Source: Escherichia coli
GTDB taxonomy: Bacteria > Pseudomonadota > Gammaproteobacteria > Enterobacterales > Enterobacteriaceae
Reading direction: 5' to 3' (one strand)
DNA length: 64,000 bases
NCBI RefSeq assembly: GCF_044324875.1
Contig: NZ_CP172185.1
Part shown: positions 41,871 to 58,880 of the stretch, in pieces
How the letters are laid out: every line of letters begins with the position of its first letter
Position numbering within the stretch: the stretch's first letter is position 1
The notes under the pieces: model-generated
Told to the model about the DNA's origin: nothing
The model's input: the letters and a program-made list of their open reading frames with translations, nothing else
Databases searched by the model: none
Translations under genes and position numbers: made by a program

Positions 41871-43043
41871 AAAATTTCCTATTTAAAGGTCAGGTGTTAA
41901 TGCTGACATGCGATTTTGAGACGTATAAATAGTCCTTGTCTATTATATTCTTATCAATTTTATTTTCAATGTTTTTATCTTCTTTTTATACACTCTTAAA
42001 AAGAACCGATTTTATTACCTGAGCATGTAATGTAAAAGTATATGTGTGATGATTAAAGTTTTTATCCTTATTTTTCCTGTAAGGACGAGCTTTCCGTGGT
42101 TGCTGTTCTCGTATGTATGCGGGGTATTACTTTCACTAATGGTTAAAATTCTTTCCTTCCGGTTAAAGCATTCATGTGTTTGTATTTTTCTTTGCTATTT
42201 GTTTTTTAGTACAGAATTTAATTAGTGTGGTTGTGATTTTTGTTGATATCACCACGCGCATTTTATATGAAATAGCCACATAACTTTCAACAAAATATAA
42301 AAATAAAATTATGCTATAGTAAACAACAGATTTTTATGTTTATGAAAGATGACCACTTTTTTAATTTGACTGAATTTTTTAAGATGCTTTTGAGTTGTGA
42401 AATATATTTTTCTTTATTGCTTTTTGGAATGTTGACGGGGCGTAGTTATGATTAATATAACAGAAGTTTCAGGAACGCTTTTTTCTTTTAAATGCCTGCG
42501 CATGACTTGTTCAATAATGTGTTTTCATCATATTTTTTTGGCATCAATACAATAATTAAAGATATAACGTTAAAATATTATTTATTGGCTTTTCCTGATG
42601 GAGTAAAAACAAATGTAACAACTAACTGCATGATAAATAAGTAGAATGGTCAGTATCATGTATATTATTTGGGTATAAGTGGTATTTGTAAAGAATCAGT
42701 TGTGTTACTCCGGAATATATCTCTTTGAGAGAGCAGAAGTGAAACAGATATTCTCTTGAAAGTATTGCATTATCGTTACCGTTTTTATATCAGAGGCTGA
42801 AAATACGTATTTTTATAAACAGGGTGGAGGCATTTTTGTGTTATGTATGGATTTTCAAACCGGGTGAATCATCCAGACAGGTAATAATATAATAAGAAAT
42901 GTTGCTGCCAGGCTAAAACAGGAACGTGTACTTCTGTGAAAATGTTGATGCGAAGCTACCATTATTTGGGGTAGGGTATCTTCGCTCATCAGATGATATT
43001 GAATATGGTCGCCTGAAATCAGAAATTAAAAAATACAAATGGT

Positions 43044-43070
43044 AGTTAACTCCCCACCAACCGCTGTGGT
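43044..43070 (-). terminator. perfect 11-bp stem / 5-nt loop hairpin downstream of the integrase gene
   Basis: CCCCACCAACC-GCTGT-GGTTGGTGGGG; T-rich sequence follows on the minus strand after a ~20-nt gap. Confidence 0.45.
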
Positions 43071-43087
43071 TGGTGGGGGGGGATGGC

Positions 43088-44281
43088 TTATTTCGTTTGT
43101 ACGTTTTTCTCCATAAGTGAATCAATGTAATCAGCGTACCACTGCATCATTTCACGACGTCCATCGAGATACAGGGCATGATTATAGGTACCCCTGATGG
43201 AGTTTTTATCCACATGCGCTAACTGCATTTCAATCCAGGCAGAATTAAAGCCCTGTTCGTGCAGAATTGTGCTCATTGTGTGACGAAAACCATGGCCGGT
43301 TGCTCTGCCATCGTAACCGATGCGTTTTAGTACCATATTGATGCTGGCTTCACTCATCGGTTTGTTAACATCGCAACGTCCGGGGAATATAAGGCGATAC
43401 TGCCCGGTAAAACGATGCAATTCCTGCAGCAGTGAAATGGCCTGGCGTGACAGAGGAACAATATGATGCCTGCGCATTTTCATTCGCTCTTCAGGGATAT
43501 GCCAGAGTGCGTTGTCAGAATCAATTTCTGACCATTCGGCCAGCCGCAATTCAATCGTTCTGAGTCCGGTCAGCATCAGCAGGCTCGTCGCCATACGGGT
43601 GACAGGACTGCCATGATAGTCAGCGAGCTTCCGGAGAAAAACAGGAAGTTCATCCGCTCTCAGATGGGGAAAATGTGCGGTTTTTGGTGCCGCCAGCGTA
43701 CTGGTCAGTTCTGATGCAGGATTGACAGTGGCACGTCCTGTGGCAATGGCATAACGGAAAATCTGATTGCAGTATTGACGGACCTTGCGTAATTTTTCCA
43801 GAGAGCCACGTTTTTCAATACGACGCAAAATCTCCAGCATTTCCAGCGGGAGGATATCAGTCACGCTCCGGTTGCTCAGATACGGGAAAACGTCTTTATC
43901 CAGCGCTTCCAGTACGCTTCTGGCGTAACTGTCAGACCATGATAAAGATTTATGATGATGCCATTCCATTGCGAGAGCATGAAAGGTGTTGGTGACAGAG
44001 ATTTTCTGAGAGAGTTTTTCCCTTCGCTTCTTTTCACCGGGATCTCCACCCTCGGATATAATTTTTCGTGCATCGTCGCGTCTGGTTCTGGCTTCAGCAA
44101 GGGAGACGTCAGGATAGACGCCGAGGGACAGTTTTTTCTCCTTTCCTGCTGTTCTGTACTTAAGGCGCCAGTAGCGTGCTCCCGTGGTTTTTACCAGCAG
44201 ATATAAACCACGTTCATCAGAAAGTTTATAATCTTTGTCTTTAGGTCTTGCCGTTTCGACCTGTCTGGCTGTAAGTGCCAT
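43088..44281 (-). CDS. P4-type tyrosine integrase
   Basis: N-terminal LTARQVETARPKDKDYKLSDERGLYL arm-binding domain; catalytic R...HxxR...Y region (GHGFRHT, RGTYNHA). Confidence 0.85.
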   Translation of the reverse strand: MALTARQVETARPKDKDYKLSDERGLYLLVKTTGARYWRLKYRTAGKEKKLSLGVYPDVSLAEARTRRDDARKIISEGGDPGEKKRREKLSQKISVTNTFHALAMEWHHHKSLSWSDSYARSVLEALDKDVFPYLSNRSVTDILPLEMLEILRRIEKRGSLEKLRKVRQYCNQIFRYAIATGRATVNPASELTSTLAAPKTAHFPHLRADELPVFLRKLADYHGSPVTRMATSLLMLTGLRTIELRLAEWSEIDSDNALWHIPEERMKMRRHHIVPLSRQAISLLQELHRFTGQYRLIFPGRCDVNKPMSEASINMVLKRIGYDGRATGHGFRHTMSTILHEQGFNSAWIEMQLAHVDKNSIRGTYNHALYLDGRREMMQWYADYIDSLMEKNVQTK

Positions 44282-44457
44282 ATGGGGGCCCCTTAAACTG
44301 ACCGAACACAATGAGCCCCCAAATGTGCCCCCATTTAATGCTTGATTCAGGGGGTGTTCAATAGAATTCGGTGGAGTTCAAAATGTCCGGAACGATTATA
44401 AATCAGTGATTATACATGAATTTCGTGGAGTGCGGGGGATGTGTGTAGAAGTGAAGG

Positions 44458-44510
44458 TGGTGCCCTGACTCGGAATCGAACCAAGGAAACGGGGATTTTC
44501 AATCCCCGTG
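44458..44510 (-). tRNA. partial tRNA-Phe (3' 53 nt: anticodon stem-loop GAA through CCA); attachment-site repeat, not a complete gene
   Basis: minus strand CACGGGGATTGAAAATCCCCGTTTCCTTGGTTCGATTCCGAGTCAGGGCACCA; 3 mismatches to E. coli tRNA-Phe; no acceptor/D-arm 5' half upstream. Confidence 0.7.
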
Positions 44511-44558
44511 CCATAATTGGCTGTGTCAGTTGGTTACACACCATTGAGGTGTGTACTA

Positions 44559-45437
44559 ATGAAAATACTGCCCGTTGTCTCCACAAAAGGTGGCGAAGGT
44601 AAATCAACACAATCCGCAAACCTGGCTGGTTTTCTCGCCGATGCAGGTATCCGTACCCTGCTGATTGACGGAGATCATGCTCAGCCCACGGCAAGCAACA
44701 TCTTTCCGCTGACATATGAAGCGTCAGCCGGTCTTTTTGAGTTGCTGATGCGCACGGCTGACCTCAGTCATCCCGATAACATCATTTCCCGCACGGCTAT
44801 CGACGGACTCGATCTGATAGTCTCCAATGACCCTCATGAGCAGTTAAAAACTGCGATGCTTCACGCCCCGGATGGTCGTCTGCGCCTCCGGAATGTCCTG
44901 CAGCATCCGCTTTTTCTGAACAACTACGATGTCATTGTAGTTGATTCTCAGGGAGCACGTTCTGTCATGCTCGAAATGATTGTGCTGTCGGCCACTGATT
45001 CGGTTGTCGGGATGGTCAATCCGGTACTCCCTGATGTGCGCGAGTTTATTCGGGGCACTGTCAATGTTATGGAGAACCTGCTGCCTTACCGGGAGCTGGG
45101 GATACCCCTGCCGAAAGTACGCACGCTGGTTAACTGCATGGATTATACGGCACTGGCCAGGAAGACGCTGGATGAGCTGGCCGGAATTATTCAGACCGGT
45201 CGTTACAGCAGACAGTTACCTGAAGGTGCGGTTTCCCTTCTTTCCACACAGATTTACGACCTGAATATTTACAAGCAGGGGCATGCGGCTGGTCAACCCG
45301 TACATCGTCTCGAAAAAGAATCCACACGTCGCAGTGATTCCGCGCTTGTCACGATGCACAGCCTGGCCTGTGAACTCTTTCCTGAGTGGAAACAGGCGTT
45401 TGACGGGCTGCTGGCGAACGGGGGAATACGTCAGTGA
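44559..45437 (+). CDS. ParA/Soj-family partition ATPase (ICE left-end gene)
   Basis: deviant Walker A KGGEGKST at N-terminus. Confidence 0.8.
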   Translation: MKILPVVSTKGGEGKSTQSANLAGFLADAGIRTLLIDGDHAQPTASNIFPLTYEASAGLFELLMRTADLSHPDNIISRTAIDGLDLIVSNDPHEQLKTAMLHAPDGRLRLRNVLQHPLFLNNYDVIVVDSQGARSVMLEMIVLSATDSVVGMVNPVLPDVREFIRGTVNVMENLLPYRELGIPLPKVRTLVNCMDYTALARKTLDELAGIIQTGRYSRQLPEGAVSLLSTQIYDLNIYKQGHAAGQPVHRLEKESTRRSDSALVTMHSLACELFPEWKQAFDGLLANGGIRQ

Positions 45438-45504
45438 TTCAGGTTAAGCGAGAACCATGCAGCTCCGTTACCCTGGCTTATGGACGTTATCAATACCGGA
45501 CAAT

Positions 45505-46020
45505 ATGACGAGAAGGATTAACCCTATGAATAACAGCAGCAATACCACAACCCGTAATACGCTTTCACCCGTTGAGTCAGCCTGTCATGCCTTACTGGAT
45601 TTTATTGCCCGGGAAGTTTTTGAGAATAAAGCACCGGAAGAGGACGTCAGGGAACGTTGCAAAGTATTTACAGCGCTGCTTAACGAAGGATTTAAAGCCC
45701 TGCTTGATGAGGCAGGGCTGAATCTGTCAAACCTTCGTAAACAGTGTGAGGAACTGGAATCTCAGATAACCAGACTTGATTCTCAGTCCGATGCTATTTG
45801 TCGCAGAGGTGCTCAAATTGAACGCTTCATTGGTCACCATTTACCTTTTTTCGATTTGAACAAAGTTTTTGATACTGCCAGTCAGTCATGTGAACCAGCG
45901 CCTTCTCCGGCTCAGTCGGCTGTGTCCAGTAGTCAGCCCAGTAATCTGTCAGAGCAAGGGACATCTCAGCGGGTGTCATCTGTTCAACCGTTGCAGGGAG
46001 CCAGTGATGTTGATGAATAA
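45505..46020 (+). CDS. hypothetical ICE protein
   Basis: ORF with low-complexity Ser/Gln tail; start uncertain. Confidence 0.35.
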   Translation: MTRRINPMNNSSNTTTRNTLSPVESACHALLDFIAREVFENKAPEEDVRERCKVFTALLNEGFKALLDEAGLNLSNLRKQCEELESQITRLDSQSDAICRRGAQIERFIGHHLPFFDLNKVFDTASQSCEPAPSPAQSAVSSSQPSNLSEQGTSQRVSSVQPLQGASDVDE

Positions 46021-46378
46021 GAGCAAACTTAACGGCTTGTTGAACGCTGATACTGTTATCGTCCAGAAAAAACCAGCGGCGGCTGTTAATCAGCCAGTGT
46101 CCGAGCCAGCAAAGTCGGTAAGCGAGCTTCCGGTCAGCTCCGGGAAAGATTTCTGTTCCCTGGTCAAAGAAGGTTTTGCACCGTTCCACATCGTCGGTGC
46201 TCATACCTCCGACTTTCCAGTTTTCATAATATTTTGCCATGTTGCCATCCTCATCATGGTTGTTATCAATGCCGGACGGCAGTTGCTGATGATTTGTGTT
46301 CATAAGGTATTTCTCTTCGTAAACATGTTGATTATGAGCGCAAATATGCTGTACGTACCTTCTGACCGGGGTCGGCAA
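45827..46378 (-). CDS. hypothetical protein (antisense-overlapping candidate)
   Basis: 183-aa Trp-rich ORF overlapping the 3' end of 45505-46020; only one of the two is likely fully real. Confidence 0.3.
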   Translation of the reverse strand: MPTPVRRYVQHICAHNQHVYEEKYLMNTNHQQLPSGIDNNHDEDGNMAKYYENWKVGGMSTDDVERCKTFFDQGTEIFPGADRKLAYRLCWLGHWLINSRRWFFLDDNSISVQQAVKFALIHQHHWLPATVEQMTPAEMSLALTDYWADYWTQPTEPEKALVHMTDWQYQKLCSNRKKVNGDQ

Positions 46379-46511
46379 ACTTACCGGTCGGAAAATGTAC
46401 AGAAAGTTATGGGCCTTTTATGCCCTGCAACTGTTCGTCCGGCACCCGTTTTCGTTTTTTTGCATGGTGGGTTTGCTGTGAAACAGGCTCCGTTTGCCCG
46501 GGAGGTGGCGT

Positions 46512-47900
46512 ATGTCTGAACGCTATATTCCACGCTCCGTTGATGCAGAGCAGGCCGTGCTGGGCGGCCTGATGCTCGATAATGAACGCTGGGATGAGGT
46601 GGTACTGATGCTCCGGGGGGAGGATTTTTCTCTGGCCGCACACCGGGTGATATTCCGCACCATGTCAGAGCTGGCAACCAGCGGTCAGCCGTTCGACCTC
46701 ATCACGCTGAGTGAGCATATTGAGAAAACAAACAATATTGAGGCACTGGGTGGTTTCGCTTATCTGGCTGAACTCAGCAAAAATACGCCTTCTGCAGCCA
46801 ATATTATCGCTTATGCCCGTATTGTTGCTGAAAAGAGCATGCTGCGTCAGTTGCAGGAGACGGGGAATGCGCTGATTACGGATGTGGCCGCACCGGATGC
46901 GACACCACGCACTGTTCTTGAATCCGCTGAACGTCGGCTCTTTTCACTTTCACAGACTGGCATGTTGCATGAGCGATGTGAAGTCAGTCTCACCTCGGCT
47001 ATGGAGCTGGCGCTGCGTCAACTGGAAGAGGGACTGAACGCCGGCGGGATGACGGGCACGCCCACGGGATTTGATGAACTGGATGAGATGACCTGTGGTC
47101 TGCAGCCCGGCGACCTCATTCTTCTGGCTGCACGCCCGTCTATGGGGAAAACAGCGCTGGGCCTTACCTTCTGTCTTAATGCCCTGTGTAACCGGACCGA
47201 TGAAACGGTATTTCTTTTCAGTATCGAAATGTCCCGGGAGCAGCTGATTCTGCGTGTCCTGTCAATGCTCTCCAGGGTGGAGCTGACACGTCTTCGCAGC
47301 AGCATGATGGATGATGAAGAGTGGGCGAGAGTCACGGCAACCATGGGACGCTTCATGAATGAAGCGTCATTCATCGGAGATGGAAACCGCCTGATAATTG
47401 ATGACACCTCCTTCCAGACGCCGTCATCGCTGCGTGCCAGCGCCCGTCGTTATGTCCGTCTGTATGGCAGACCTTCCCTGATAATGGTTGATTACCTCCA
47501 GCTGATTCGTTCTCCGGACCAGGAGAACCGAACGCAGGAAATTGCGGAAATATCCCGCGCCCTTAAGGCGTTAGGTAAAGAGCTGGGATGCCCGGTACTG
47601 GCACTGTCTCAGCTTAACCGTCAGGTGGAGCAGCGGGCGGATAAGCGCCCCAATAACGGTGACCTGCGTGATTCCGGGGCGCTGGAGCAGGATGCTGACC
47701 TCATTATGTTTATTTACCGTGATGAGGTTTATAACTCTGGCACGCTGGATAAGGGCGTTGCTGAAATCATTGTGAGCAAACAGCGGCAGGGGCCAACCGG
47801 AACGATACGGGTGAACTTCGACGGCCGCTACACCCTGTTTTCACCGTTTGAACGTGGATGGAATTTTGACCGTGCCGGAGGAAATGCGTATGTCAATTAA
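46512..47900 (+). CDS. DnaB-like replicative helicase
   Basis: N-terminal DAEQAVLGGLMLDNERW, Walker A GKTALGLTF, RecA-like C-terminal domain. Confidence 0.8.
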   Translation: MSERYIPRSVDAEQAVLGGLMLDNERWDEVVLMLRGEDFSLAAHRVIFRTMSELATSGQPFDLITLSEHIEKTNNIEALGGFAYLAELSKNTPSAANIIAYARIVAEKSMLRQLQETGNALITDVAAPDATPRTVLESAERRLFSLSQTGMLHERCEVSLTSAMELALRQLEEGLNAGGMTGTPTGFDELDEMTCGLQPGDLILLAARPSMGKTALGLTFCLNALCNRTDETVFLFSIEMSREQLILRVLSMLSRVELTRLRSSMMDDEEWARVTATMGRFMNEASFIGDGNRLIIDDTSFQTPSSLRASARRYVRLYGRPSLIMVDYLQLIRSPDQENRTQEIAEISRALKALGKELGCPVLALSQLNRQVEQRADKRPNNGDLRDSGALEQDADLIMFIYRDEVYNSGTLDKGVAEIIVSKQRQGPTGTIRVNFDGRYTLFSPFERGWNFDRAGGNAYVN

Positions 47901-49539
47901 ACGAAATCATTCCGTTGATCTGGGAGCTGCCATCATGCAACCGGGCCGTCAGACCAGCACGACGGGTAACGTGGTGGCGCTGGGGGAAACACCGATGATT
48001 CTGACGCTGGATCAACTGCGCCCCAACCCGGATAACCCGAGGACCACGCGTAATCCCCGGTACGACGATATTAAAAGTTCAATTTTCTCCCGTGGACTGG
48101 ATACGGTGCCCAAAGTCACCCGGATACCTGAGAGTGAGCCGGATATCTATATTTTCAGCGATGGTGGTAACACGCGATATCAGATCCTGAAAGAGCTGTG
48201 GGAGGAGACCGGCGATCAGCGTTTCTATCGTATTCATGTGCTTTTCAAGCCATGGCCGGGACGGCTTCAGTGCGTCATTGGTCACCTGGCTGAGAATGAA
48301 GTCAGGGGCGAACTGACGTTTATTGAAAAGGCCCGGGGTATCCATAACGCCCGGATGATTTATGAGGAGTCGATGCAGCGAACCGTGACGATCAGGGAAC
48401 TGGCGTCACTGCTGACGGATGAAGGACTTCCGGTAAGCCACTCATCTGTCAGCAGGATGGAGCATACTCTGAAATATCTGTATCCGTGGATCCCCGATCT
48501 TCTGGAATCAGGATTAGGAAGACCGCAGATCAATTCACTGTTGTCTCTCCGGCAGGATGCGGAACGCATCTGGGGACAGTTTGCGGTGGCAACAGAGAAC
48601 GGGGCGGATTTTGACCGCGTGTTTGGTGAATGCTGCAGCAAATTCAATTCACCGGAGCTCTGGTCACTGGAGATGTTCCGGGATGAGCTGATTGGTGATC
48701 TGCTGAAAGCGTTACCACATCCGGTGCTGGATTATGACCGCTGGTTGCTTGAACTGGATCCGCGGGAGCGTAACCGACGTCACCATTTTGGCGAACCTGA
48801 GCCGGTGCTCATTCCCGCAGACAGTGATGCGATGCCAGAGCCTGCGACTGACGGTGTGTCGGCAGTGACGGCGGAGAAGAACAGCGGAAGGGAGCAGTCT
48901 GTGATTTCCGCACCGGCTGACCATGACACAGTCATGAATACGGAGCAATCCCCGGCTGGAAAGGCGGAGAGTTCAGTTATCGAACAACGCGAAGAACGCC
49001 GTAGAAAGGAAGTCCAGCCGGATATGTATGGTGGTGAAGAAACATACAGCGGCGATTACGAAGAGGATGGCGATACCCGTGATGCTGCGGATCTGCCGGT
49101 AACGTCACCGGAAGAGGGGGCTCAGCAGAGCAGCGGTGAAATATTCAGTGAGCCGGTATTCAGTGTTGGTGAACTGGATGATATCGAATATCTGCAGAAT
49201 GAGGCATTTCACCTGGCATGGGAGCTGGCGTCACACACAGGCTGTGTCGATGAGCTGGCTATGGACAGGGAAAGCGAACTGTCTGCGGGATTCGGCGCGG
49301 CAGAGGCGAATTGTTCTCCGGTCATGGCATTTCTTGTCAGGCTGACCGGTGAGGAGGTTCTGCGGGTTAATCCGGTTTCTCTTGATGCACTGATGATTGG
49401 TGGCAGTACTGAAGAAGAGCCACCACTGCTGGATGATGAGCATGCCGGGAAGTTACTCCGTCTGCTTGGGGTGTTGCGTCGTCTGCGGGGGCTGCAGCGC
49501 CAGGTGGAAGAAGAGAACGTGGAGGGGCGTGATGAATAA
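47884..49539 (+). CDS. ParB-like nuclease-domain protein (ICE ParB family)
   Basis: ParB N-terminal-domain-like region (LRPNPDNPR) then long acidic C-terminal half. Confidence 0.6.
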   Translation: MRMSIKRNHSVDLGAAIMQPGRQTSTTGNVVALGETPMILTLDQLRPNPDNPRTTRNPRYDDIKSSIFSRGLDTVPKVTRIPESEPDIYIFSDGGNTRYQILKELWEETGDQRFYRIHVLFKPWPGRLQCVIGHLAENEVRGELTFIEKARGIHNARMIYEESMQRTVTIRELASLLTDEGLPVSHSSVSRMEHTLKYLYPWIPDLLESGLGRPQINSLLSLRQDAERIWGQFAVATENGADFDRVFGECCSKFNSPELWSLEMFRDELIGDLLKALPHPVLDYDRWLLELDPRERNRRHHFGEPEPVLIPADSDAMPEPATDGVSAVTAEKNSGREQSVISAPADHDTVMNTEQSPAGKAESSVIEQREERRRKEVQPDMYGGEETYSGDYEEDGDTRDAADLPVTSPEEGAQQSSGEIFSEPVFSVGELDDIEYLQNEAFHLAWELASHTGCVDELAMDRESELSAGFGAAEANCSPVMAFLVRLTGEEVLRVNPVSLDALMIGGSTEEEPPLLDDEHAGKLLRLLGVLRRLRGLQRQVEEENVEGRDE

Positions 49540-50263
49540 TGATGCAGCACGTCAGGAGCAACTGATTAAACGGATAAGAAAACTGCTGGCGCTGAGCCGG
49601 AATAACAGTAATCCACATGAGGCAGGTCAGGCTCTTTCCCGCGCACAGGCGCTGATGCGGAAGCATGGTATCACCGAACTGGATGCTGATATTTCGGTGA
49701 TAAAAACCTCATCATCAAAGGGAGCACCGTCAGAAGCGGAAAAAGTTCCGGTATGGATGGGGCGTCTTATGAATGTTGTTGCAGGGGCATTCGGATGCCA
49801 TACATACCTGGACTGGCGTATCACAACCGGAGGATACTGGCGGCGGATTGTCACATTTTATGGTTTTGGGGAGCGTCCGGTTGTGGCTGCGTATGCCTTT
49901 GATGTTCTCTGCCGGCAGATGCAAAAGGCGACAAAAGAGTATCTCTCAACCCAGAGCCGGAAATTAAAACACTCAACCCGTCGTGCAAGAGCTGCGATGT
50001 TTCGTGACGGCTGGGTTTATGGGGTGCGTGATGTGGTGGATGCATTCCGGCTCACGGAAGATGAGACGCGTGTAATGAATACGTGGCTGCAGAACCAGCA
50101 ATTTGAGGGAATGGTCGTCTTCCGGGAGGTAAAGGACTGCCATGGCGGTGACCATGCACGCTGGCAGGGATACAACGAGGGGAAAAAGGCAACGCTGAAT
50201 CACGGTGTTGGTTCCCGGGATCTGAGACCGGAAAGCCTGATATCGGGCGGAGGTGAGGTATGA
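49532..50263 (+). CDS. hypothetical ICE protein
   Basis: start overlaps parB-like stop; conserved ICE backbone position. Confidence 0.45.
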   Translation: MNNDAARQEQLIKRIRKLLALSRNNSNPHEAGQALSRAQALMRKHGITELDADISVIKTSSSKGAPSEAEKVPVWMGRLMNVVAGAFGCHTYLDWRITTGGYWRRIVTFYGFGERPVVAAYAFDVLCRQMQKATKEYLSTQSRKLKHSTRRARAAMFRDGWVYGVRDVVDAFRLTEDETRVMNTWLQNQQFEGMVVFREVKDCHGGDHARWQGYNEGKKATLNHGVGSRDLRPESLISGGGEV

Positions 50264-50838
50264 GTAACAACTTATCACAGGCCACCAACGGGCTGTTGAT
50301 GCAACTGGTGATGGATCTCAAGAGTGGCTATCTGCGGCGATGTGAAGCGCTGGGGCTTTCCCGGGAAGAAATGCAGATGCTGCAGGGGCTGAGCATTGAA
50401 GAAATTCACTATCTGTCAAATTCAGAAGTGTCGGTGCTGCGGCTGGATATTAACCACAACAATCTTGTGCGCATGTTGCAGCAGGCGCGGACTGAACAGA
50501 AACGTCTGCAGCGAATCGATCGCGCTCTGGCGCTGGGTGGGTCTATCGAACTCATGGCGTTTTATTTTGGTCTTTCCAGCGTGGATGTGGCTGCGCGGCG
50601 TCGTATCTCCGGTATTGATGTTCGTCCCGGAAGGGGGATCACCCTGAGTGACGATGAGAATTCTGAACTCTGGCGGTTGTGGCAGAAAGCCGGGATCAAT
50701 GATGTGGAGAGTGTGGATGGGCTGGATGTCATGATGCTTTGTGCTGAACAGATGAACATTCCACTGACGGCCATCTGGCATGCCGTCAGAGGGTGGCATA
50801 CAACCGGAAATCCGGATCAGGTAAGGAGTGCGTCATGA
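50260..50838 (+). CDS. pathogenicity-island replication protein, STY4526/YPO1902-like (assignment by gene order and recollection)
   Basis: 192-aa ORF translationally coupled to neighbours. Confidence 0.4.
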   Translation: MSNNLSQATNGLLMQLVMDLKSGYLRRCEALGLSREEMQMLQGLSIEEIHYLSNSEVSVLRLDINHNNLVRMLQQARTEQKRLQRIDRALALGGSIELMAFYFGLSSVDVAARRRISGIDVRPGRGITLSDDENSELWRLWQKAGINDVESVDGLDVMMLCAEQMNIPLTAIWHAVRGWHTTGNPDQVRSAS

Positions 50839-51083
50839 AGATGACAGAACTGGTTCCCGGAGTGCTGACAAGTCCGGGCGTCCCTCCCACCAGTCAGCGT
50901 AAGGCGGTTGAACTGGTCAATCGCTTCCGTCGTGGAGAGCGGAATTATCATGAACTGAAGGAAAGAGGATTTGGTTATTTCAAGATTGATGTTGGTCCTG
51001 ACTGGCGGTTACTGAGCCGGAATAAAGGGCTGACCTGGGCCCTGTTGAGTCATGAACGATACAACAACATGAGACTGAAGTGA
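50835..51083 (+). CDS. small hypothetical protein
   Basis: ATG 50835 preceded by AAGGAG. Confidence 0.4.
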   Translation: MKMTELVPGVLTSPGVPPTSQRKAVELVNRFRRGERNYHELKERGFGYFKIDVGPDWRLLSRNKGLTWALLSHERYNNMRLK

Positions 51084-51092
51084 GGTGGAAAG

Positions 51093-51350
51093 ATGAGTAA
51101 TGCAGCAAGACTCCAGCTGGGTTTTTCTCCGTTTTCAAAAACTATCGTGCTGGCAAAAATGCGTAATCTTGACGACGGAACCAGTCTTCGTGTCGGTAAT
51201 GATCCCGGTCGCGATGTAACCAATGAGGCGGCTCAGCTTGTCTGGCATCTGGTCATGGCAGAAGGTGGTGAAATTATGTGGGAAATGGACGATGGCTCCC
51301 GCATGGTGCTGAAGGCTGAAAGTCAGGAGGCAACCAGTGAGCAAGATTAA
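51093..51350 (+). CDS. small hypothetical protein
   Basis: 85-aa ORF. Confidence 0.35.
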   Translation: MSNAARLQLGFSPFSKTIVLAKMRNLDDGTSLRVGNDPGRDVTNEAAQLVWHLVMAEGGEIMWEMDDGSRMVLKAESQEATSEQD

Positions 51351-51945
51351 CTACCAGGCACTGCGTGAGGCGGCAGAGCAGGCAATGCATGACGACTGGG
51401 GATTTGACACGGATCTTTTCCATGAGCTGGTAACACCATCGATTGTGCAGGCACTGCTGGATGAACGGGAAGCCCAAAGCAAACACGTAGCTGAACTGGA
51501 GGCTAATTTATCGGCGATGACCGAAGACCACCAGAAAGCGACTGAGTCAATTAAGCAGGCTGATTCGGCTGTTAAGTTGGCACACGAGACGTTTTCGGCG
51601 CTGGCGGCGGAGAATGCAAAGCTGAAGAAGTTCTGCAAAGACGCTGCATTCGATGCCGATTACGAAGCAGAGTCAGGTATGGAGCGTGGTGGATTCAGTG
51701 ATGCGCTTAACGAAATCAAAATCACAGCCACCGACGCTTTCCTGGCTGAAGTACGGGCGCAGGGGGTGGATGCTGCTATAGACGCTGCAAAAAATCTGGT
51801 GGCTCAGGAATATGAGTATAAGGATTTCAAAGCGGCGCAGAGTGATTGCTGTATGTTTCCTGGTTCAGACCTGGTAGGGAAGGTTGAAATGACCGAGTGG
51901 TTAGTTGACTTTGCCGCAGAGCTTCGCAAAGGAGGCAACCAGTGA
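51337..51945 (+). CDS. hypothetical protein (N-terminal KINYQALREAAE module)
   Basis: shares N-terminal module with the next ORF. Confidence 0.45.
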   Translation: MSKINYQALREAAEQAMHDDWGFDTDLFHELVTPSIVQALLDEREAQSKHVAELEANLSAMTEDHQKATESIKQADSAVKLAHETFSALAAENAKLKKFCKDAAFDADYEAESGMERGGFSDALNEIKITATDAFLAEVRAQGVDAAIDAAKNLVAQEYEYKDFKAAQSDCCMFPGSDLVGKVEMTEWLVDFAAELRKGGNQ

Positions 51946-52256
51946 ACAAGATTGACTATCAGGCACTGCGTGAGGCGGCAGAAGCAATAAAAATAGCAGC
52001 CACACCACAAAAATTGCTGGCATTTCGTATGAAAGTCACACCTCAGGTTGTGCTGGCGCTGCTGGATGAGCTGGAAACCAAAGAAGAACAGCGAGCTAAC
52101 TTGCAGGGACCAGAAGGATTGATTAAAGCAGTGCGCTTCTATGAACAGGTTAAGCGTGAAAATCCGCCAGTCGAAACCGGAGTATGGAAAGACGCTGTTG
52201 ACTGGGTGCTCAAAGAGGCTTGCCAGGCTGTAAACATTGGCATCAAAGGAGAGTGA
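51942..52256 (+). CDS. hypothetical protein (paralogous N-terminal module; C-terminal module duplicated at 53322-53513)
   Basis: MNKIDYQALREAAE... and ...PEGLIKAVRFYEQVKRENPPVETG. Confidence 0.45.
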   Translation: MNKIDYQALREAAEAIKIAATPQKLLAFRMKVTPQVVLALLDELETKEEQRANLQGPEGLIKAVRFYEQVKRENPPVETGVWKDAVDWVLKEACQAVNIGIKGE

Positions 52257-52258
52257 GA

Positions 52259-52750
52259 GTGCAGATTTCACCGGTTACTCTTCGTGTTGCGAAGGCGTTT
52301 ATATCCAGACATCACCGACACAATAAACCCCCGGTGGGGCATAAATTCAGCATTGGTCTGAGAAATGATGCCGGAGAATTGATAGGTGTGGCGACAGCCG
52401 GTCGACCTGTAGCACGACATTTGGATGATGGATTAACGCTTGAAGTAAATCGCACATGTACCACAGGAGAACGCAACGCTAACAGCGCGCTTTATGGTGC
52501 TGTCTGGCGGGCAGCAAAAGCTATGGGTTATCAACGTTGTATTACGTACACCCGGGCAGATGAATCAGGAGCATCTCTTCGCGCAACTGGTTTTGTTCGT
52601 GTGAAAGAGCTTCCTCCAAGAAAAAGCTGGGCGGAATCAAGCGTCGCCCTGCGGAGTAAACGCGATCCAGTCGGAAACGGTGGTGTTCCTCGTGTGCTCT
52701 GGGAAATCAGGAGAATGAGTACCACTGGTATTCGCATCAAAGGAGAGTGA
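52259..52750 (+). CDS. hypothetical protein
   Basis: GTG start just after previous stop; ends with GIRIKGE. Confidence 0.4.
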   Translation: MQISPVTLRVAKAFISRHHRHNKPPVGHKFSIGLRNDAGELIGVATAGRPVARHLDDGLTLEVNRTCTTGERNANSALYGAVWRAAKAMGYQRCITYTRADESGASLRATGFVRVKELPPRKSWAESSVALRSKRDPVGNGGVPRVLWEIRRMSTTGIRIKGE

Positions 52751-52751
52751 T

Positions 52752-53267
52752 ATGGCGTTAACACACCACGAACTCTGTCAGATTGCGTACAAGTTCCTTA
52801 AGCGCAACGGGTTCAAGGTTTGCTTTCATGACCGCTTTATAGCTGTAACCAGTACCGGAGAACAGCCAGATGCTATGGGATTCAGAAATTCAGCATCATG
52901 CCTGATAGAGGCGAAGTGTTCTCGTGCTGACTTGTTGGCAGATAGAAAAAAGCGTTTCCGTAAAAATCCCTCACTTGGCATGGGCGACTGGCGATTCTTT
53001 ATTAGTGAGCCGGAAATTATTTCAGTTGAGGATTTACCTCCCGGCTGGGGATTACTTCACGTTGTTAACGGAAGAGTACGGAAAGTACATGGATGGCCCA
53101 GGGGTAATTGCTGTTGGGGTAATCCTGACGATAAGCCATTTACTGGGAATAAGCAGGTTGAATGCGATTACATGTTATCTGCATTAAGGCGCATGGAGCT
53201 AAGAGGACACCTTAATGAAATATATGACGGTGTAATTGTTAATAAGAAAGAAGGAAACGCAGCATGA
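52752..53267 (+). CDS. hypothetical protein, possible PD-(D/E)xK nuclease-like
   Basis: D...E-x-K arrangement (QPDAMGF ... IEAKCS); inference only. Confidence 0.35.
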   Translation: MALTHHELCQIAYKFLKRNGFKVCFHDRFIAVTSTGEQPDAMGFRNSASCLIEAKCSRADLLADRKKRFRKNPSLGMGDWRFFISEPEIISVEDLPPGWGLLHVVNGRVRKVHGWPRGNCCWGNPDDKPFTGNKQVECDYMLSALRRMELRGHLNEIYDGVIVNKKEGNAA

Positions 53268-53321
53268 CCACTTTAACCGACAAAGAACTAATTAAAGAAA
53301 TCAGAGAGCGAATACCCCGCC

Positions 53322-53513
53322 TTGCCAGCGTCGGTAGTGCCTGAAGGACTGGTTAAAGCAGTGCGTTTCTATGAACAGGTAAAGCGTGAGAATCCGCCAG
53401 TCGAAACCGGAGCATGGAAATACGCTGTTGACTGGGTATTACAGGAAGCATGTCAGGCTGTTCATTGGTGCCGACAGATATCAGCCCTTCAGGAACAGGA
53501 GAATCATTCATGA
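53322..53513 (+). pseudogene. partial duplicate of the C-terminal module of ORF 51942-52256
   Basis: about 85 percent nucleotide identity to 52113-52240; lacks the N-terminal module. Confidence 0.4.
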
Positions 53514-53725
53514 GAAAAATCAGTGGAATGTTGAATCTGGAGAAGGCCAGGATGCAGTTGCGTGTTTTGTTATCTGGACCTGTTCCTGCAATCACTCCGA
53601 TGGCGCATGCCGTGGCAATAAAAGTTGTGCTTGATGCTCTGGATGCGAGTGAGCGGAGGGTGGCTGAACTGGAACAGGTCTGCACTGCCGCGGGTATTCG
53701 TATCAAAGGGGAACAAGTGAAATGA
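53510..53725 (+). CDS. small hypothetical protein
   Basis: RBS AGGAG before ATG 53510; ends GIRIKGE-like. Confidence 0.35.
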   Translation: MRKISGMLNLEKARMQLRVLLSGPVPAITPMAHAVAIKVVLDALDASERRVAELEQVCTAAGIRIKGEQVK

Positions 53726-53943
53726 AACGGAAAATGCAGACAATTTCGGGTCCTGTGATTATCGACAGTAATGAGGTGACACAGTTTTACCCGGACCATG
53801 AAAGTGGAGGGGAACTCACCGCTGTTGAGTACCTTGCTGACGGGGGAAGAATCACCGCGAGGGTGAGGCACTCTTTTTATCAGGTTGCTGCGGCACTTGC
53901 CGGGGCATGGCGTGCGGATGATGCATCAAAAAGCGGTGGGTGA
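53722..53943 (+). CDS. small hypothetical protein
   Basis: 73-aa ORF. Confidence 0.3.
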   Translation: MKRKMQTISGPVIIDSNEVTQFYPDHESGGELTAVEYLADGGRITARVRHSFYQVAAALAGAWRADDASKSGG

Positions 53944-54203
53944 GGACTGTGCCGGAATGATTGTCTGTTCCGAAGCTGCTGAGCCGCGACATAAATTTTT
54001 TATGTTGCGGTGAAGCAGCCGACAAACGAAGAGCGTCAGCGTATCAACAGTTAAGGAAAATATCTTCTGAAGCCGGACGCGACAGTCAGTCCGGTGGTGC
54101 TCGTGTGGTGAAGTGTTTAGCCTGCATCTTTGACAGGGTTCAGTTATAAGCATTTCGGAAACCGTTCCCCGGGGCAGTCTGCCGGGATTTAAGGAGTTTA
54201 TTT

Positions 54204-55469
54204 ATGGCGCTACCTGCAGAAAGCCTTATTGCGCATACGCTCAGAAAAATGAAGGCCAGCATGGCAGAGAAAGCCAGTCGTGAGGACGGGAGGATACGCA
54301 GTGGGCTGTTGTTTACCGGCAATGTTCACGATTCGTATCCCCGCAGGCTGTTGCTGGATACGCGCCTTTCTCCCCTTGATAAAACTGCGTGGATGATGAT
54401 TCGTCTGCATGCCCTGAATAATGAGGGCGCAGTATTTCCGACGTACGATGAACTGCAGTTACAACTGGCATCTCCCGGGCGCGGGAAGGCGTCCCGTGAA
54501 ACAGTGAGCCGGGTGCTGACAATGCTGCGGCTTACGGGCTGGCTGAGTCTGTGTAAGCGGGTCAGGGATGAAAAAGGGCGGGTCCGGGGGAATATTTACG
54601 CCCTGCATGATGAGCCACTGACCTGCTGTGATGCAGAAAAGTTTGACCCACGATACCTGGATATGGTTCTGGATACTGTGAGCAGGAGCCGGAACAAGAC
54701 AATCCGGCACACAGCCAGTGAAGTGCTCAGTGATATCAAAAATGAGCCCGGTATGCGGCATTACCACAGCCATATCACTCTGTTTGAATCGCGTATGGGG
54801 GCAGCACAGACACCTGGTCAGCTGGCGGCGCGTCAGCGGGTGAACCCGATGGTGAATGAAAACACAGGCAGAGAGAGTGGTTCGGATTCCGTACATACCC
54901 CTGCACCTGTCGTGCAGGTAAACGAACTCAGTGATCCATTAATCGAACTCAGTGAAAAACAGGAAATGAGCCCACTCAGTTCGGATTCCGTACTGCCTGA
55001 AAAATCAGCAACTTATTACTCGGTTCGGAAACCGAACAATTACGTACGTAATATCACACACAGTGTGATTAAAAATACGTACGTATTGCCTGAGTCGGTG
55101 AAATCGCAAATCAGCGCAGAAGACACGGACATGCTGACAAAACAACTGCAGGCGTTGCCGGAAGAACTGGCAGGTAGTGTGCTGAGCAGCCTGTTACAGA
55201 TGCTCAGCAAAAACACGCTCCAGAATCCGGTTGGCTGGATGCTGGCTGTGATGAAACTTGCGCGTGAGGGACGTTTTAATACGCCGGATATGTCCGTGCA
55301 TGAATCCCGGTCGCCAGCCCGTGCACCATATCAGCCTGTGTACAACCGTGATGAACGTGAACGTCGTCGCGGGAAAGTGGCGTCACCTGAAACGGTGAGC
55401 AACATTGTCGCAGAATTCCGGGCCAGCCTGAAACGTGCAAATGCTGCCCGTCTGGCGGCGCGTGTGTGA
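54204..55469 (+). CDS. ICE/pathogenicity-island replication initiator-like protein (STY4528-like)
   Basis: 421-aa ORF immediately followed by an iteron array. Confidence 0.5.
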   Translation: MALPAESLIAHTLRKMKASMAEKASREDGRIRSGLLFTGNVHDSYPRRLLLDTRLSPLDKTAWMMIRLHALNNEGAVFPTYDELQLQLASPGRGKASRETVSRVLTMLRLTGWLSLCKRVRDEKGRVRGNIYALHDEPLTCCDAEKFDPRYLDMVLDTVSRSRNKTIRHTASEVLSDIKNEPGMRHYHSHITLFESRMGAAQTPGQLAARQRVNPMVNENTGRESGSDSVHTPAPVVQVNELSDPLIELSEKQEMSPLSSDSVLPEKSATYYSVRKPNNYVRNITHSVIKNTYVLPESVKSQISAEDTDMLTKQLQALPEELAGSVLSSLLQMLSKNTLQNPVGWMLAVMKLAREGRFNTPDMSVHESRSPARAPYQPVYNRDERERRRGKVASPETVSNIVAEFRASLKRANAARLAARV

Positions 55470-55483
55470 TGGTTAAAAGTCAA

Positions 55484-55803
55484 TCTATGGCGCTACTGGC
55501 ACCATAGTACAAAAAATAAGCGATGGTGCCACTGGCACCATAGTACAAAAAATGAGCGATGGTGCCACTGGCACCACGGTATAAAAAATGAGCGATGGTG
55601 CCACTGGCACCACGGTATAAAAAATGAGCGATGGTGACGCTGGCACCATAGTACAAAAAATAAGCGATGGTGCCACTGGCACCACGGTACAAAAAATAAG
55701 CGATGGTGCCACTGGCACCATAGTACAAAAAATGAGCGATGGTGCCACTGGCACCATAGTACAAAAAATGAGCGATGGTGCCACTGGCACCATAGTATAA
55801 AAA
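55484..55803. repeat. iteron array: ~9 tandem 36-bp units each containing palindrome GGTGCC-ACT-GGCACC
   Basis: period 36 bp measured between successive GCGATGGTGCC starts (55520, 55556, 55592...). Confidence 0.85.
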
Positions 55804-55935
55804 CGAACGCAATTCATACGCTCAATCCCGTTAATTTTAAAAGGTTCAAATCTGTTTTCCTGTTGTTGTTAATCCGGTTCTTTCTGACGATCTCACACTC
55901 AACTGGTGTTATTTCTGGTACTGAGTGGAGGTCAT

Positions 55936-56616
55936 ATGACTGATGAGAAAAAGACTGAACCTGGCGTGTTAAAAAGCTCCCTGACAATTAATATTCACAC
56001 TTATTACGCTATTCGGTTGTGGAACGGTCGCAAGCCTGAGACTGGTGCTGATAAGTCGGAACGTCGGCGCAGGATCATTGGCATGCCCGGGGTTATTTCC
56101 CGTGCGGGTATCGCAACAAAAGATTCTGAGAACAATAATCCGTGGGCGGATGAATTTTTGTTCAGCCTTGAGGAAAAGCTGAATCACTCAAAGCAAAAGA
56201 TTAATGACCTGGTTGAGCAGTTAAATGATGTTTTACGGGATGTGCCAGGGGATATTTGTATTTCTGAAATATCATCAACCAGTCCAGTAAATATTGGTGT
56301 GCACAGTCGTTCACCTCTTGGTTACAAATGTGTATGGCTGCTTGTCGGGTACGATGAACTGGTGCTTAAAGCCTTTCAGGCTTTCCACTATGGACTGATT
56401 GCCCGATCACGTCGTGATGAAATACTTAATGCCGGAGGGCATGCTGTACGTCAGATTTGTGCTCTTGCCCAGGGATATAAAACTGTACCTGCAACGAGGG
56501 GTGATATTTCTTCTGGCTCACAAAAAGGAAAAGATGCGATCAGCCGCTATGGCATGCCTGATCCTGACATCCTTACCGGGAAGAAACGGTCCTCCTTTTC
56601 TGCACCGCTGAAATAA
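55936..56616 (+). CDS. conserved ICE protein (PFL_4669-like, putative)
   Basis: ORF immediately upstream of topB as in SPI-7/PFGI-1-type ICEs. Confidence 0.4.
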   Translation: MTDEKKTEPGVLKSSLTINIHTYYAIRLWNGRKPETGADKSERRRRIIGMPGVISRAGIATKDSENNNPWADEFLFSLEEKLNHSKQKINDLVEQLNDVLRDVPGDICISEISSTSPVNIGVHSRSPLGYKCVWLLVGYDELVLKAFQAFHYGLIARSRRDEILNAGGHAVRQICALAQGYKTVPATRGDISSGSQKGKDAISRYGMPDPDILTGKKRSSFSAPLK

Positions 56617-56628
56617 TCTGGTAACTCT

Positions 56629-58647
56629 ATGCGTCTCTATTTATGTGAAAAACCTTCACAGGCCGCTGATATAGCCAGAGTACTTGGGGCTGCCAGACGT
56701 GGTGATGGTGCGATTGAAGGTAAGGACTTTGTTGTGACCTGGGCCTTTGGTCACTTGCTGGAGCAGGCGCCACCGGAGGCGTATGGTGAACAGTTTGGCA
56801 GCCCCTGGAAAATTGACGTTTTGCCGGTCTTTCCTAAACAGTGGAAGATGGTGGTGAAGGATAATGTCGGGAAGCAGTTTAATGTGATCAGCCGCCTTCT
56901 CCGTAAGACTGATGAAGTGGTGATTGCCACTGACGCCGATCGTGAAGGCGAAATTATCGCAAGGGAACTGCTGGATTATTGTGGTTATACCGGCGTTGTG
57001 CGCCGTCTCTGGCTGTCCGCACTGGATGAGAGCAGTATCAGGGAGGCGCTGGACAGAATACTGCCCGGAGAGGAGACCGAGAAGTTATATGAAGCCGGTA
57101 AGGGACGCAGCCGGGCTGACTGGCTGACGGGGATCAACCTGACGCGTCTGTATACCCTGAAAGCCAGGGGGTGTGGTGTGTCCGGCGTCCTCTCTGTTGG
57201 CAGGGTGCAGACGCCCACGCTTGCGATGGTGGTCAGACGGGACGCGGAAATAAAAAATTTTATTCCGGTACCTTACTGGCAACTGTATCTCTGGCTGGAG
57301 AAGGATAATGTGCGTTTTCGTACCACCTGGATTGCGGCAGCGCAGTACTGCGATACTGAAAAACGGTGTGTGAATGTGCAGGCGGCAACAGCCGTCCTGT
57401 CACAGTGTCGTCAGGCAGGTGTTGCTGTTGTCAGGGATGTCAGCAGCAGACGGGAGAAAAAGCAGCCTCCGCTGTGTTTTTCGCTCGGAACGTTGCAGGA
57501 GGTCTGTTCGCGCAAATTTGGCCTCGGAGCGCAGGCTGTTCTTGATATAGCCCAGTCGCTGTACGAAAAGCATAAGGCGACAACATATCCGCGTACAGAT
57601 TGCGGTTATCTGCCGGTATCAATGCACAAAGAAGTGCCTGACGTACTGGCGGCGCTGGAAAAAACCGATCCGGATATTGCCACGGAGCTGGCAAAACTCA
57701 GTCCTGATATTGTGTCGGGGATCTGGAACGACAGGAAGATCACCGCGCATCATGCGATAATCCCCACCCGTCAGCCGTTTAATATTGTGGCGCTGAGTGA
57801 TAATGAGCTTAAGGTGTACCGGTTAATTCGTCAGCATTATCTGGCTCAGTTTTTACCCATGCAGGAGTCGGATGTCACAGAGGCCACATTTCTTGTTGCG
57901 GGGCAGTTGTTCGGAACGCGGGGACGGGTGGAGGTTGTCAGGGGATGGCGTGCGCTTTTTGTGTCAGATTCGGCGGGAGAGGAAGAGGATGTTGCAGACG
58001 ATGAGCAGGCGATGCCCCTTCCCGTACTGGCAAAAGGTGATGAATGTCGTCCTGCTGAAGCTGAACTCAAAGAGATGCAGACCACGCCACCACGTCATTA
58101 TACGGAAGGCACGCTGATTGCGGCGATGAAAAATGCTGCGGGTATGGTGAGTGATCCGGCACTGAAAAAAGTGTTACGCGAAAATGCGGGGCTGGGTACT
58201 GAAGCGACCCGCGCAGAAATACTGGAAACGTTGTTCACCCGCAAATATATCGAGAAGCAGGGTAAGCATATCCGTGCCACGCAACTGGGGGCGGAGCTGA
58301 TAGCGGGATTGCCGGAGGCGCTGACCAGTCCGGGAACAACGGCGCTGTGGGAACAGGCTCTGGATGATATTGCACAGGGTAAACTGTCACTGTCGTCATT
58401 TATGGAGAAGCAGAAACAGTGGCTTAACCACCTGGTGGCCGGTGCAAGGCAGCAGCCACTGCAGATCACGGCACCGGTTACGCCTGCATGCCCTCTTTGC
58501 AGGGGAAGAATGCGGAAGGTGAAGATGAAAAGCGGGAAAGGGGAATTCTGGAGTTGTCAGCGTTATCCGGAGTGTAAGGGAGTGATTTCAGAGCAGAAAC
58601 CGACATCCGGGAAACGGGGCGGCAGAAAAATTAAAAAGCGTGGATGA
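56629..58647 (+). CDS. topB: DNA topoisomerase III
   Basis: Toprim N-terminus (LYLCEKPSQA), catalytic Tyr region, C-terminal zinc ribbon CPLCRG...CQRYPEC. Confidence 0.85.
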   Translation: MRLYLCEKPSQAADIARVLGAARRGDGAIEGKDFVVTWAFGHLLEQAPPEAYGEQFGSPWKIDVLPVFPKQWKMVVKDNVGKQFNVISRLLRKTDEVVIATDADREGEIIARELLDYCGYTGVVRRLWLSALDESSIREALDRILPGEETEKLYEAGKGRSRADWLTGINLTRLYTLKARGCGVSGVLSVGRVQTPTLAMVVRRDAEIKNFIPVPYWQLYLWLEKDNVRFRTTWIAAAQYCDTEKRCVNVQAATAVLSQCRQAGVAVVRDVSSRREKKQPPLCFSLGTLQEVCSRKFGLGAQAVLDIAQSLYEKHKATTYPRTDCGYLPVSMHKEVPDVLAALEKTDPDIATELAKLSPDIVSGIWNDRKITAHHAIIPTRQPFNIVALSDNELKVYRLIRQHYLAQFLPMQESDVTEATFLVAGQLFGTRGRVEVVRGWRALFVSDSAGEEEDVADDEQAMPLPVLAKGDECRPAEAELKEMQTTPPRHYTEGTLIAAMKNAAGMVSDPALKKVLRENAGLGTEATRAEILETLFTRKYIEKQGKHIRATQLGAELIAGLPEALTSPGTTALWEQALDDIAQGKLSLSSFMEKQKQWLNHLVAGARQQPLQITAPVTPACPLCRGRMRKVKMKSGKGEFWSCQRYPECKGVISEQKPTSGKRGGRKIKKRG

Positions 58648-58847
58648 TGATTACATGCTTTTTTTTATTTGTTAAAGTGCATACGCTTTGATGCGTACCC
58701 TGCTGACCACAGTAAAGAGCGGGCAGCTCTTCGGTCCGGTGATCGGCTCTACACACCAGCTGGATCACAAGGCGCATAAACTCCGTGAAAACCGCGCCGG
58801 GAGAAATCCCCGGAGACTGATGAGATAAACTACAGGGCTGGTAACCC

Positions 58848-58880
58848 CGGGCACCGTTTTTACGGTGCCCTTTTTATTTT
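58848..58880 (+). terminator. Rho-independent terminator
   Basis: CGGGCACCG-TTTTTA-CGGTGCCC followed by TTTTTATTTT. Confidence 0.7.

Follow-up and report, generated by a model that had tools for sequence, protein, structure and literature searches.

P4-like satellites carry variable, defence-rich cargo regions beside P4-type integrases. AT-rich DNA that has been acquired is coated by H-NS, which is well established to suppress spurious promoters (PMC3923964, PMC7229825, PMC8894471). The Juk system protects against jumbo phages and uses JukA, formerly named YaaW, as its sensor; the study describing this system reported that Xre-jukA pairs occur and that JukA alone sufficed for immunity; its criterion for a partner gene is a location on the same strand and within ~50 bp of jukA (bioRxiv 10.1101/2022.09.17.508391). 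Other structures relevant here are Rho-independent and bidirectional terminators, and the stem-loops that stabilise 3' ends.

We analysed a stretch of 64,000 nt of Escherichia coli DNA, hereafter the window, and in particular the 1217 nt between jukA and the integrase gene int, which we refer to as the spacer and which, based on the gene boundaries, corresponds to positions 41871-43087. The features of the locus are the following:

41106..41870, minus strand: jukA (DUF3944/YaaW family), 254 aa, with Pfam domains PF13099 (DUF3944) and PF03981 (Ubiq_cyt_C_chap)
41871..41941, minus strand: predicted jukA leader, with the RBS AGGA 8 nt before the ATG, read from sequence
41893..42023, minus strand: weak HMM match (i-E 0.04) to the 3' end of an Xre gene, a possible relic
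41942..41969, minus strand: best promoter-like site, TTGAAA-16-TATAAT, a consensus match at 11/12 positions, ~70 nt upstream of the jukA ATG
42030..42831, no strand assigned: AT-rich non-coding core, G+C about 0.29, confined to this island lineage and two diverged copies
42832..43087, no strand assigned: integrase-3' flank module, common to sister islands with 77-80% identity, and 95% over the last 83 nt
43052..43078, no strand assigned: perfect 11-bp G+C hairpin, CCCCACCAACC-GCTGT-GGTTGGTGGGG, with a 5-nt loop, -21.8 kcal/mol
43088..44281, minus strand: P4-type tyrosine integrase (int), 397 aa from the annotated ATG, with the frame open to 44311
44282..44457, minus strand: int upstream region, with the putative int promoter and att arm sites, placed between int and the tRNA fragment
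44458..44507, minus strand: tRNA-Phe 3' fragment (att core), 50 nt from the anticodon stem to CCA, with 2 substitutions

The int product contains the domains Arm-DNA-bind_3, Phage_int_M and Phage_integrase, and the jukA product is recognised by the JukA models of PADLOC (E 7e-69). LeoC, LeoB and LeoA are located to the left of jukA (PADLOC, E down to 5e-280), so that two defence modules make up the cargo closest to the integrase. ARAGORN detected no tRNA in the 64-kb window; the tRNA-Phe fragment was found by eye and by a pattern search. Beyond this fragment lies the backbone of an SPI-7-type ICE, with parA, which starts at 44517, then dnaB-PI and the remainder. We surveyed the context of the locus in ten assemblies encoding an identical JukA. 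The int-spacer-jukA block is present in all ten of them. Its location is either pheV, intact and on the yqgA/speC side, or pheU, likewise intact and on the cutA/dsbD side, or the junction with the parA of the ICE, which identifies the element as a tRNA-Phe island that is present here in tandem with the ICE at the tRNA-Phe fragment. The region 44282-44457 does not differ between copies from these three kinds of location. The locus resembles the cargo regions of P4-type integrases in that its cargo is swappable, with Eleos LeoABC and JukA here and EcsC/TPR genes in sister islands, but the likeness of the island in the window to P4-like satellites is positional only.

An earlier note on this DNA, made from the sequence alone, had placed the spacer in a tRNA-Phe island and had proposed a comparison with other such islands. 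The island context is supported: the tRNA-Phe fragment is located just upstream of int, and the same island with the same spacer occurs at intact pheV or pheU. The suggestion that the spacer could hold the integrase-side regulatory region has to be abandoned, because the two genes that border the spacer are both encoded by the minus strand, and the spacer is consequently downstream of int and precedes the jukA/DUF3944 gene. Since the spacer is 3' of int and the att core is on the other side, the promoter and arm region of int must lie in 44282-44457. The earlier reading is further corrected in that the YaaW-like gene encodes a JukA sensor without its usual Xre partner, and in that island and ICE form a tandem.

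The G+C content of the spacer is 0.317 (31.7%), versus 0.479 for the 64-kb window; of all stretches of 1217 nt in the 64 kb, it belongs to the 1% with the lowest values. The left 961 nt have a G+C content of 0.293, and the 500-nt window with the lowest G+C content of the entire 64 kb starts at 42201. The AT-content window calculation that had been suggested as a check confirms the extreme AT content. The 1.2-kb stretch noted earlier at 41880-43087 is real, but its true start is 41871, the start noted being 9 nt inside the spacer. The AT content had also been described as far above that of the flanks; this applies to the right flank, where the G+C content is 0.48 for int and 0.52 for the ICE backbone, whereas the difference is only moderate on the left, with 0.371 for the DUF3944 gene and 0.351 for positions 40079-41105. 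Because the left flank itself is AT-rich (0.35-0.37), the spacer forms the lowest point, in G+C content, of an AT-rich tract of ~3 kb.

The spacer shares several characteristics with the H-NS-bound island DNA described in the literature cited above (PMC3923964, PMC7229825, PMC8894471). It has a low G+C content, ~17 points below the window mean, in acquired DNA at tRNA-Phe, it is located in integrase-adjacent cargo, and it is enriched in A/T tracts (2.7-fold above the window average) and TpA steps (2-fold). Promoter-like sites are also in excess: the spacer contains 14 of them, 9 on the jukA strand, versus 6.8 ± 2.4 in composition-matched shuffles. The spacer does not contain the high-affinity H-NS nucleation motif, which would support silencing but is not required for it: allowing for up to 2 mismatches, TCGATAAATT has 0 matches in the spacer versus 0.94 per kb in the window. 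Silencing here would thus be predicted from the composition only. Binding of the spacer by H-NS is plausible in view of its composition and its density of promoter-like sites.

Among 5426 complete E. coli genomes, that of strain CM2 (NZ_CP158308) is the only one with the entire spacer, and a blastn search against plasmids and phages gave no match. Among the ten assemblies that carry the island, the spacer is at least 99.7% identical in all, and gene calls inside it number 0 in 10/10. The earlier claim that it contains no credible ORF is well founded. The longest stop-free stretch is 64 aa, compared with 71 ± 15 aa in shuffles, so that no ORF is above chance; if a start codon is required and the ORF may not leave the spacer, the maximum is 59 aa. 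We compared the stop-free segments of at least 20 aa in the three minus-strand frames with a library of 1.84 billion representative proteins and obtained only two matches, both of them spurious ORF calls on homologous non-coding DNA. The plus-strand frames gave nothing at E <= 0.001 in the protein library, and the six frames gave no match in Pfam and PADLOC. Tested as a pseudogene, therefore, the spacer has no significant translated similarity to a protein or family, apart from ORF calls on homologous non-coding DNA. One of the two, a 169-aa "protein" (P0140) matching the core, was rejected because it requires TGA to be read as Trp; it is an ORF call on a 1.2-kb contig of homologous AT-rich DNA.

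Two diverged copies of the core were recovered, which are 80-82% identical to the spacer of the window. The first, L022, is a 1.2-kb Logan contig (SRR31487608). The second, L024 (OLHG01000709.1), is a new diverged copy and one of four contigs obtained in a second metagenome scan, which used a hairpin-flank pattern; a scan of metagenomes with a 27-mer from a 98%-conserved block gave no match. L024 is a metagenome contig at pheU, whose host flank has a G+C content of 61.5% and is 74% identical to E. coli dsbD-yjdC; its spacer has a G+C content of 34% within this 61% flank, and the copy comes from another genus. The contigs of L022 and L024 themselves stop near 42000-42040. Compared with the window they contain at least 17 indels, nearly all of which are not multiples of 3. 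Between 41990 and 43110, where the sequences align, we checked 12 window ORFs of at least 25 aa, and not one of them has remained intact in both L022 and L024. The frameshifting indels and the absence of an ORF surviving in L022 and L024 demonstrate that the core is non-coding in three lineages. Except for a 98% stretch resembling recent recombination, the core contains no block of outstanding conservation.

On its left side, the spacer borders jukA. The leader predicted here and the best promoter-like site would serve jukA; a second promoter-like site, TTGAAA-17-TATAAA, is located near 42262-42290 on the minus strand, and its -35 box is not conserved in L024. Those promoter-like sites that can be checked in the diverged copies are poorly conserved. 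The locus agrees with the known Xre-JukA operons (bioRxiv 10.1101/2022.09.17.508391) in that the flanking gene encodes JukA and in that its closest relatives have an Xre gene immediately upstream: in Leclercia and Cronobacter, whose JukA proteins are 80-83% identical at the amino acid level, jukA is preceded, after a gap of 13 nt, by an Xre gene of 153 aa. The locus differs from them in that Xre is missing here and AT-rich non-coding DNA is found instead, with a relic of at most ~130 nt. The partner-gene layout of a Juk two-gene operon is not found: 1217 ORF-free nt precede jukA, and the gene that follows it has the opposite orientation.

This raises the question of whether most of the spacer might be a gene that decayed in place. 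This could have been an effector like JukB, now lost, or the Xre regulator found ahead of jukA in relatives. That homologous islands carry a gene which has decayed in this strain was the outcome that the earlier note had set against its own reading, and part of it is borne out, since relatives do have the Xre gene, of which a weak trace of the last ~40 codons is seen here, but the rest of the spacer shows no sign of a gene. Decay of this gene has a precedent in Serratia liquefaciens, where the Xre gene before jukA is reduced to 59 aa. An HMM built from 16 Xre partners aligns with positions 106-145 of 152 beside jukA (i-E 0.04 among 6 frames); this match is weak, collinear and in register with the 13-nt gap of the relatives. 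An anchored nucleotide alignment with Xre gave z 1.6-3.3 versus shuffles over the first 60-200 nt, and nothing beyond. There is a second weak match in the same frame, of positions 43-63 at ~42715-42777 (i-E 0.16). However, the two weak matches are 564 nt farther apart than in the Xre gene. Moreover, the anchored alignment over the full 475 nt (z 0.1-1.9) is no better than shuffles, local nucleotide alignment of the spacer with the Xre gene remains at shuffle level, and tblastn of Xre against the spacer gave E >= 0.057 in a tiny search space. In addition, Pfam, PADLOC (which has JukA models) and the library of 1.84 billion proteins gave no family trace, and an Xre gene would account for just ~475 of the 1217 nt. 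We therefore regard a gene decayed in place as unlikely. The matches suggest that xre was lost or truncated and replaced by unrelated AT-rich DNA rather than having decayed in place, although the trace is too weak to be sure.

At the other end of the spacer, the module common to sister islands, which carry EcsC and TPR genes instead of Leo/JukA, extends ~215 nt into int, up to 43302. Outside this common 3' block, the integrases of the sister islands have only ~56% protein identity to the integrase of the window, which indicates that integrase bodies have been exchanged on a shared 3' module. The hairpin within this module had been reported as a perfect 11-bp hairpin just past the int stop, and this is correct: it lies 9 nt from the stop codon (43088-43090, minus strand), and it is the sole perfect stem of at least 11 bp in the 64-kb window. 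All seven variants have retained its stem, which has a single mismatch in L003, and its 5-nt loop is reverse-complemented in three of the seven (L003, L005 and L022). Such loop flips are the expected behaviour of a DNA palindrome. When the genomes of 100,044 species were scanned for the pattern of the hairpin, one chance match only was obtained, in an Actinophytocola genome.

Like Rho-independent or bidirectional terminators and 3'-stabilising stem-loops, the hairpin is G+C-rich, conserved and located after a stop codon, and it has a U-rich tail on the plus strand. It differs from terminators in two respects. First, on the minus (int) strand the first U-run starts only ~13-16 nt past the stem, and the hairpin is therefore not a canonical intrinsic terminator for int. 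Second, the loop inversion in three of the seven variants is a DNA-level property of a palindrome for which a terminator has no need. What the terminator scan flagged on the minus strand was no more than an alternative, weaker stem. Read on the plus strand, the hairpin has a longer stem of 13 + 5 pairs with UAUUUCGUUU immediately after it, which makes it a reasonable candidate terminator for transcripts arising in the AT-rich DNA. We take the hairpin to be a probable terminator or 3'-end structure that separates int from the spacer.

The spacer is thus a three-part mosaic, composed of a left leader/promoter part, the AT-rich core and the integrase-3' module. We consider it likely that it is non-coding junction DNA in the variable, defence-carrying region beside the integrase of a tRNA-Phe island. 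The 256 nt beside int, together with the last ~215 nt of int, would then be a module that has spread by descent and recombination among sister islands. The most likely role of its hairpin is to define where the int mRNA ends and to protect this 3' end, and in the plus-strand direction it would probably stop transcripts from the AT-rich DNA that run antisense into int. The ~800-nt core encodes nothing detectable, and coating by H-NS would silence its many promoter-like sites. The left ~100-150 nt would constitute the promoter and leader of jukA, in the place where relatives hold the Xre gene, which may have been lost or truncated here. The spacer is an undescribed yet ordinary case of the AT-rich DNA found between genes of acquired islands, and it includes a likely promoter besides the terminator-type hairpin; of little consequence in itself, it is a clean example of such DNA.

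It could be argued that the AT-rich core is more than junction DNA, namely a selected cis-acting element. This could be an H-NS nucleation or insulator tract, which would keep int and the defence genes silent, or a long regulatory leader that replaced the control of jukA by Xre. A non-coding stretch of ~1.1 kb has been kept near full length, with only small indels, in three lineages and across a genus boundary, at a G+C content of 34% in a 61% flank in the case of L024. Bacterial genomes carry a deletion bias, and retention of the stretch in spite of this bias hints at a function beyond passive filler. The density of promoter-like sites above the composition-based expectation and the position of the core, exactly between the recombinase gene and the defence genes, are also consistent with a selected element. 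Against it, the core lacks an outstandingly conserved block besides the recently recombined-looking 98% stretch, and there are sister islands without the core. The divergence of the spacer (K 0.22) is lower than that at synonymous sites of int (dS 0.60), but this rate test is uninterpretable because int alleles have been swapped between lineages: the spacers of the window and of L001/L009 are 99.8% identical while their int genes are 87% identical, and the int gene of L024 is 96% identical to that of L001, yet their spacers differ by 19%. Altogether, we judge selection on the core to be improbable. If its retention across genera does reflect selection, the spacer would be a natural case for studying how silencing tracts persist beside recombinase and defence genes.

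A further-reaching version, which we hold to be quite unlikely, is that the spacer is a maintained cis-acting module, in which a silencer or insulator kilobase is combined with a hairpin that doubles as a DNA-level recombination site. The outer arms of the hairpin, CTCCCC...GGGGAG, resemble the CCTCCCC-NNN-GGGGAGG palindromes present at the attachment sites of sister islands, and its loop has been inverted repeatedly. If true, a recombination site at the hairpin could explain the swapping of integrase modules and of the insertion site between islands.

It is highly unlikely that a small RNA or protein is the product of the spacer. Folding z-scores of -2.4 to -4.2 at 42880-43160 would be compatible with a structured RNA; elsewhere in the spacer they are ordinary, and those of the core (-1.8 to +1.5) give no RNA-structure signal. 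However, the signal at 42880-43160 consists of the hairpin and one stem that is disrupted in L022, there are no compensatory changes among the seven variants, and an Rfam search at the gathering threshold and at E <= 1 gave no match in or near the spacer. As for a small protein, a 44-aa ORF at 42855-42989 on the minus strand has a hydrophobic tail and is partly kept in the L002-type copy. This ORF was rejected: its ATG is lost in L022, and it is frameshifted in L002, L022 and L024.

Finally, it is extremely improbable that the hairpin and the AT-rich DNA form a transfer or replication origin by which the island is mobilised by the neighbouring SPI-7-type ICE: a G+C palindrome beside AT-rich DNA, as found here, is a common origin layout, and the island shares its tRNA-Phe att site with a conjugative ICE that lies next to it in tandem, but searches of the spacer for direct, inverted and tandem repeats revealed no iterons and no arrays, the spacer has no similarity to the 19.5 kb of ICE inside the window (with nothing at E < 0.79 in the rest of the 64 kb, no mimicry of an oriT of the window's ICE part was detected), and most copies of the island are at pheV or pheU with no ICE beside int in the DNA read.

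The sister islands, rather than the spacer, are the more interesting lead. They carry a near-identical P4-type integrase that looks like a multi-site enzyme that uses dispersed G+C palindromes as attachment sites, as judged from the DNA around the insertions.

Several observations were made on these islands. Those with the integrase-3' hairpin module adjoin glnH (3 genomes), yhfS, ycjD and gcvP, and they also occur in the gap between ulaD and ulaE, in both orientations. An identical integrase protein is found at ycjD and gcvP, and another identical integrase protein is shared by both orientations in the ula gap. Every junction of a sister island reads ...GATATCAATAGAT followed by CCTCCCC-NNN-GGGG(A/C/T)G. 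At the empty glnP-glnH site of K-12, the palindrome is CCTCTCCCC-ATA-GGGGAGAGG.

The integrase of the window's tRNA-Phe island (int, 43088-44281, minus strand) was compared with the integrases of its sister islands, which share the hairpin module at the 3' end of int and carry EcsC/TPR genes instead of Leo and JukA. The window protein is only ~56% identical to the palindrome-site integrases of four such loci (L002-L005), and the last ~215 nt of int (43088-43302) together with the 256 nt downstream (42832-43087) show 78-85% nucleotide identity to the same loci. Integrase bodies thus appear to have been exchanged between them and the window on a shared 3' module, taking the insertion specificity along; the breakpoint of this exchange would lie near 43302. 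Alleles of int have also been exchanged within the tRNA-Phe lineage, where the window gene is 87% identical to those of L001 and L009 and the adjoining spacer is 99.8% identical.

Five or more different chromosomal sites carry sister islands whose P4-type integrases are nearly identical:
glnH: L002, L028 and L029
yhfS: L030
ycjD: L003
gcvP: L031
ulaD/ulaE gap: L004 on the ulaD side, L032 and L033 on the ulaE side

The integrase of L002 is 98.5% identical to that of L003, one identical integrase protein (WP_072648864.1) is found at both ycjD and gcvP, and the ulaD/ulaE gap contains sister islands in both orientations. In each locus the junction is located ~150-210 nt upstream of the int start, and at every site its sequence is GATATCAATAGAT, then CCTCCCC-NNN-GGGG(A/C/T)G. 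The empty glnP-glnH site of K-12 contains the palindrome CCTCTCCCC-ATA-GGGGAGAGG. The variety of insertion sites, combined with a common junction palindrome, suggests that the sister-island integrase targets dispersed G+C palindromes rather than a tRNA gene. These palindromes may be a repeat of the 'Box C' type.

The hairpin just past the int stop (43052-43078) has a 5-nt loop (43063-43067) whose plus-strand sequence is GCTGT in the window, L002, L004 and the diverged metagenome copy L024, and ACAGC in L003, L005 and the diverged Logan copy L022, with an unaltered stem. The presence of both loop orientations on the same stem indicates that the centre of this palindrome has been inverted repeatedly. 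The outer arms, CTCCCC...GGGGAG (CCTCCCC/GGGGAGG in L003, L022 and L024), look like the sister integrase's att palindrome, a likeness that may be coincidental or may reflect a pseudo-att site.

The integrase-proximal cargo to the left of the spacer (35984-41870) is a defence cluster. It contains the Eleos genes LeoC, LeoB and LeoA (PADLOC, E down to 5e-280) and a JukA (E 7e-69) that stands alone, with neither the Xre nor the effector gene that usually accompanies it. About 71 complete E. coli genomes match this region at ~91% (90-95% identity band of the search), and among the matches listed the similarity stops at ~40389. Particular to the window's island are a 161-aa secreted-looking ORF (40486-40971), jukA and the spacer. 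In the sister islands the same position is taken by a gene of the EcsC family; this family is given as a JukA partner in the Juk paper (bioRxiv 10.1101/2022.09.17.508391).

At L024 6925-6958, which corresponds to window ~42000-42020, the L024 spacer copy ends in tandem (ACTCAGAT)n repeats; the window's own sequence there is unique. The L022 copy also ends at most ~40 nt from this point, which may mark the boundary of a module or a variable microsatellite at which the assembly broke off.

On its other side, the island adjoins an SPI-7-type ICE backbone at a 50-nt tRNA-Phe fragment; because the two abut there, they are elements in tandem sharing one att site. Other features of the window lie outside the spacer:
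44458-64000: tRNA-Phe fragment and ICE backbone, with parA, dnaB-PI, parB, DUF2786, DUF2857 and a STY4528-family replication protein
58927-59233: two adjacent STAXI RNA matches (Rfam), in the ICE part
1631-1747: ALIL pseudoknot, an IS3-type frameshift element (Rfam match)
17750-18400: second AT-rich trough, in which G+C falls to the level of the spacer (0.27-0.28 in 500-nt windows)
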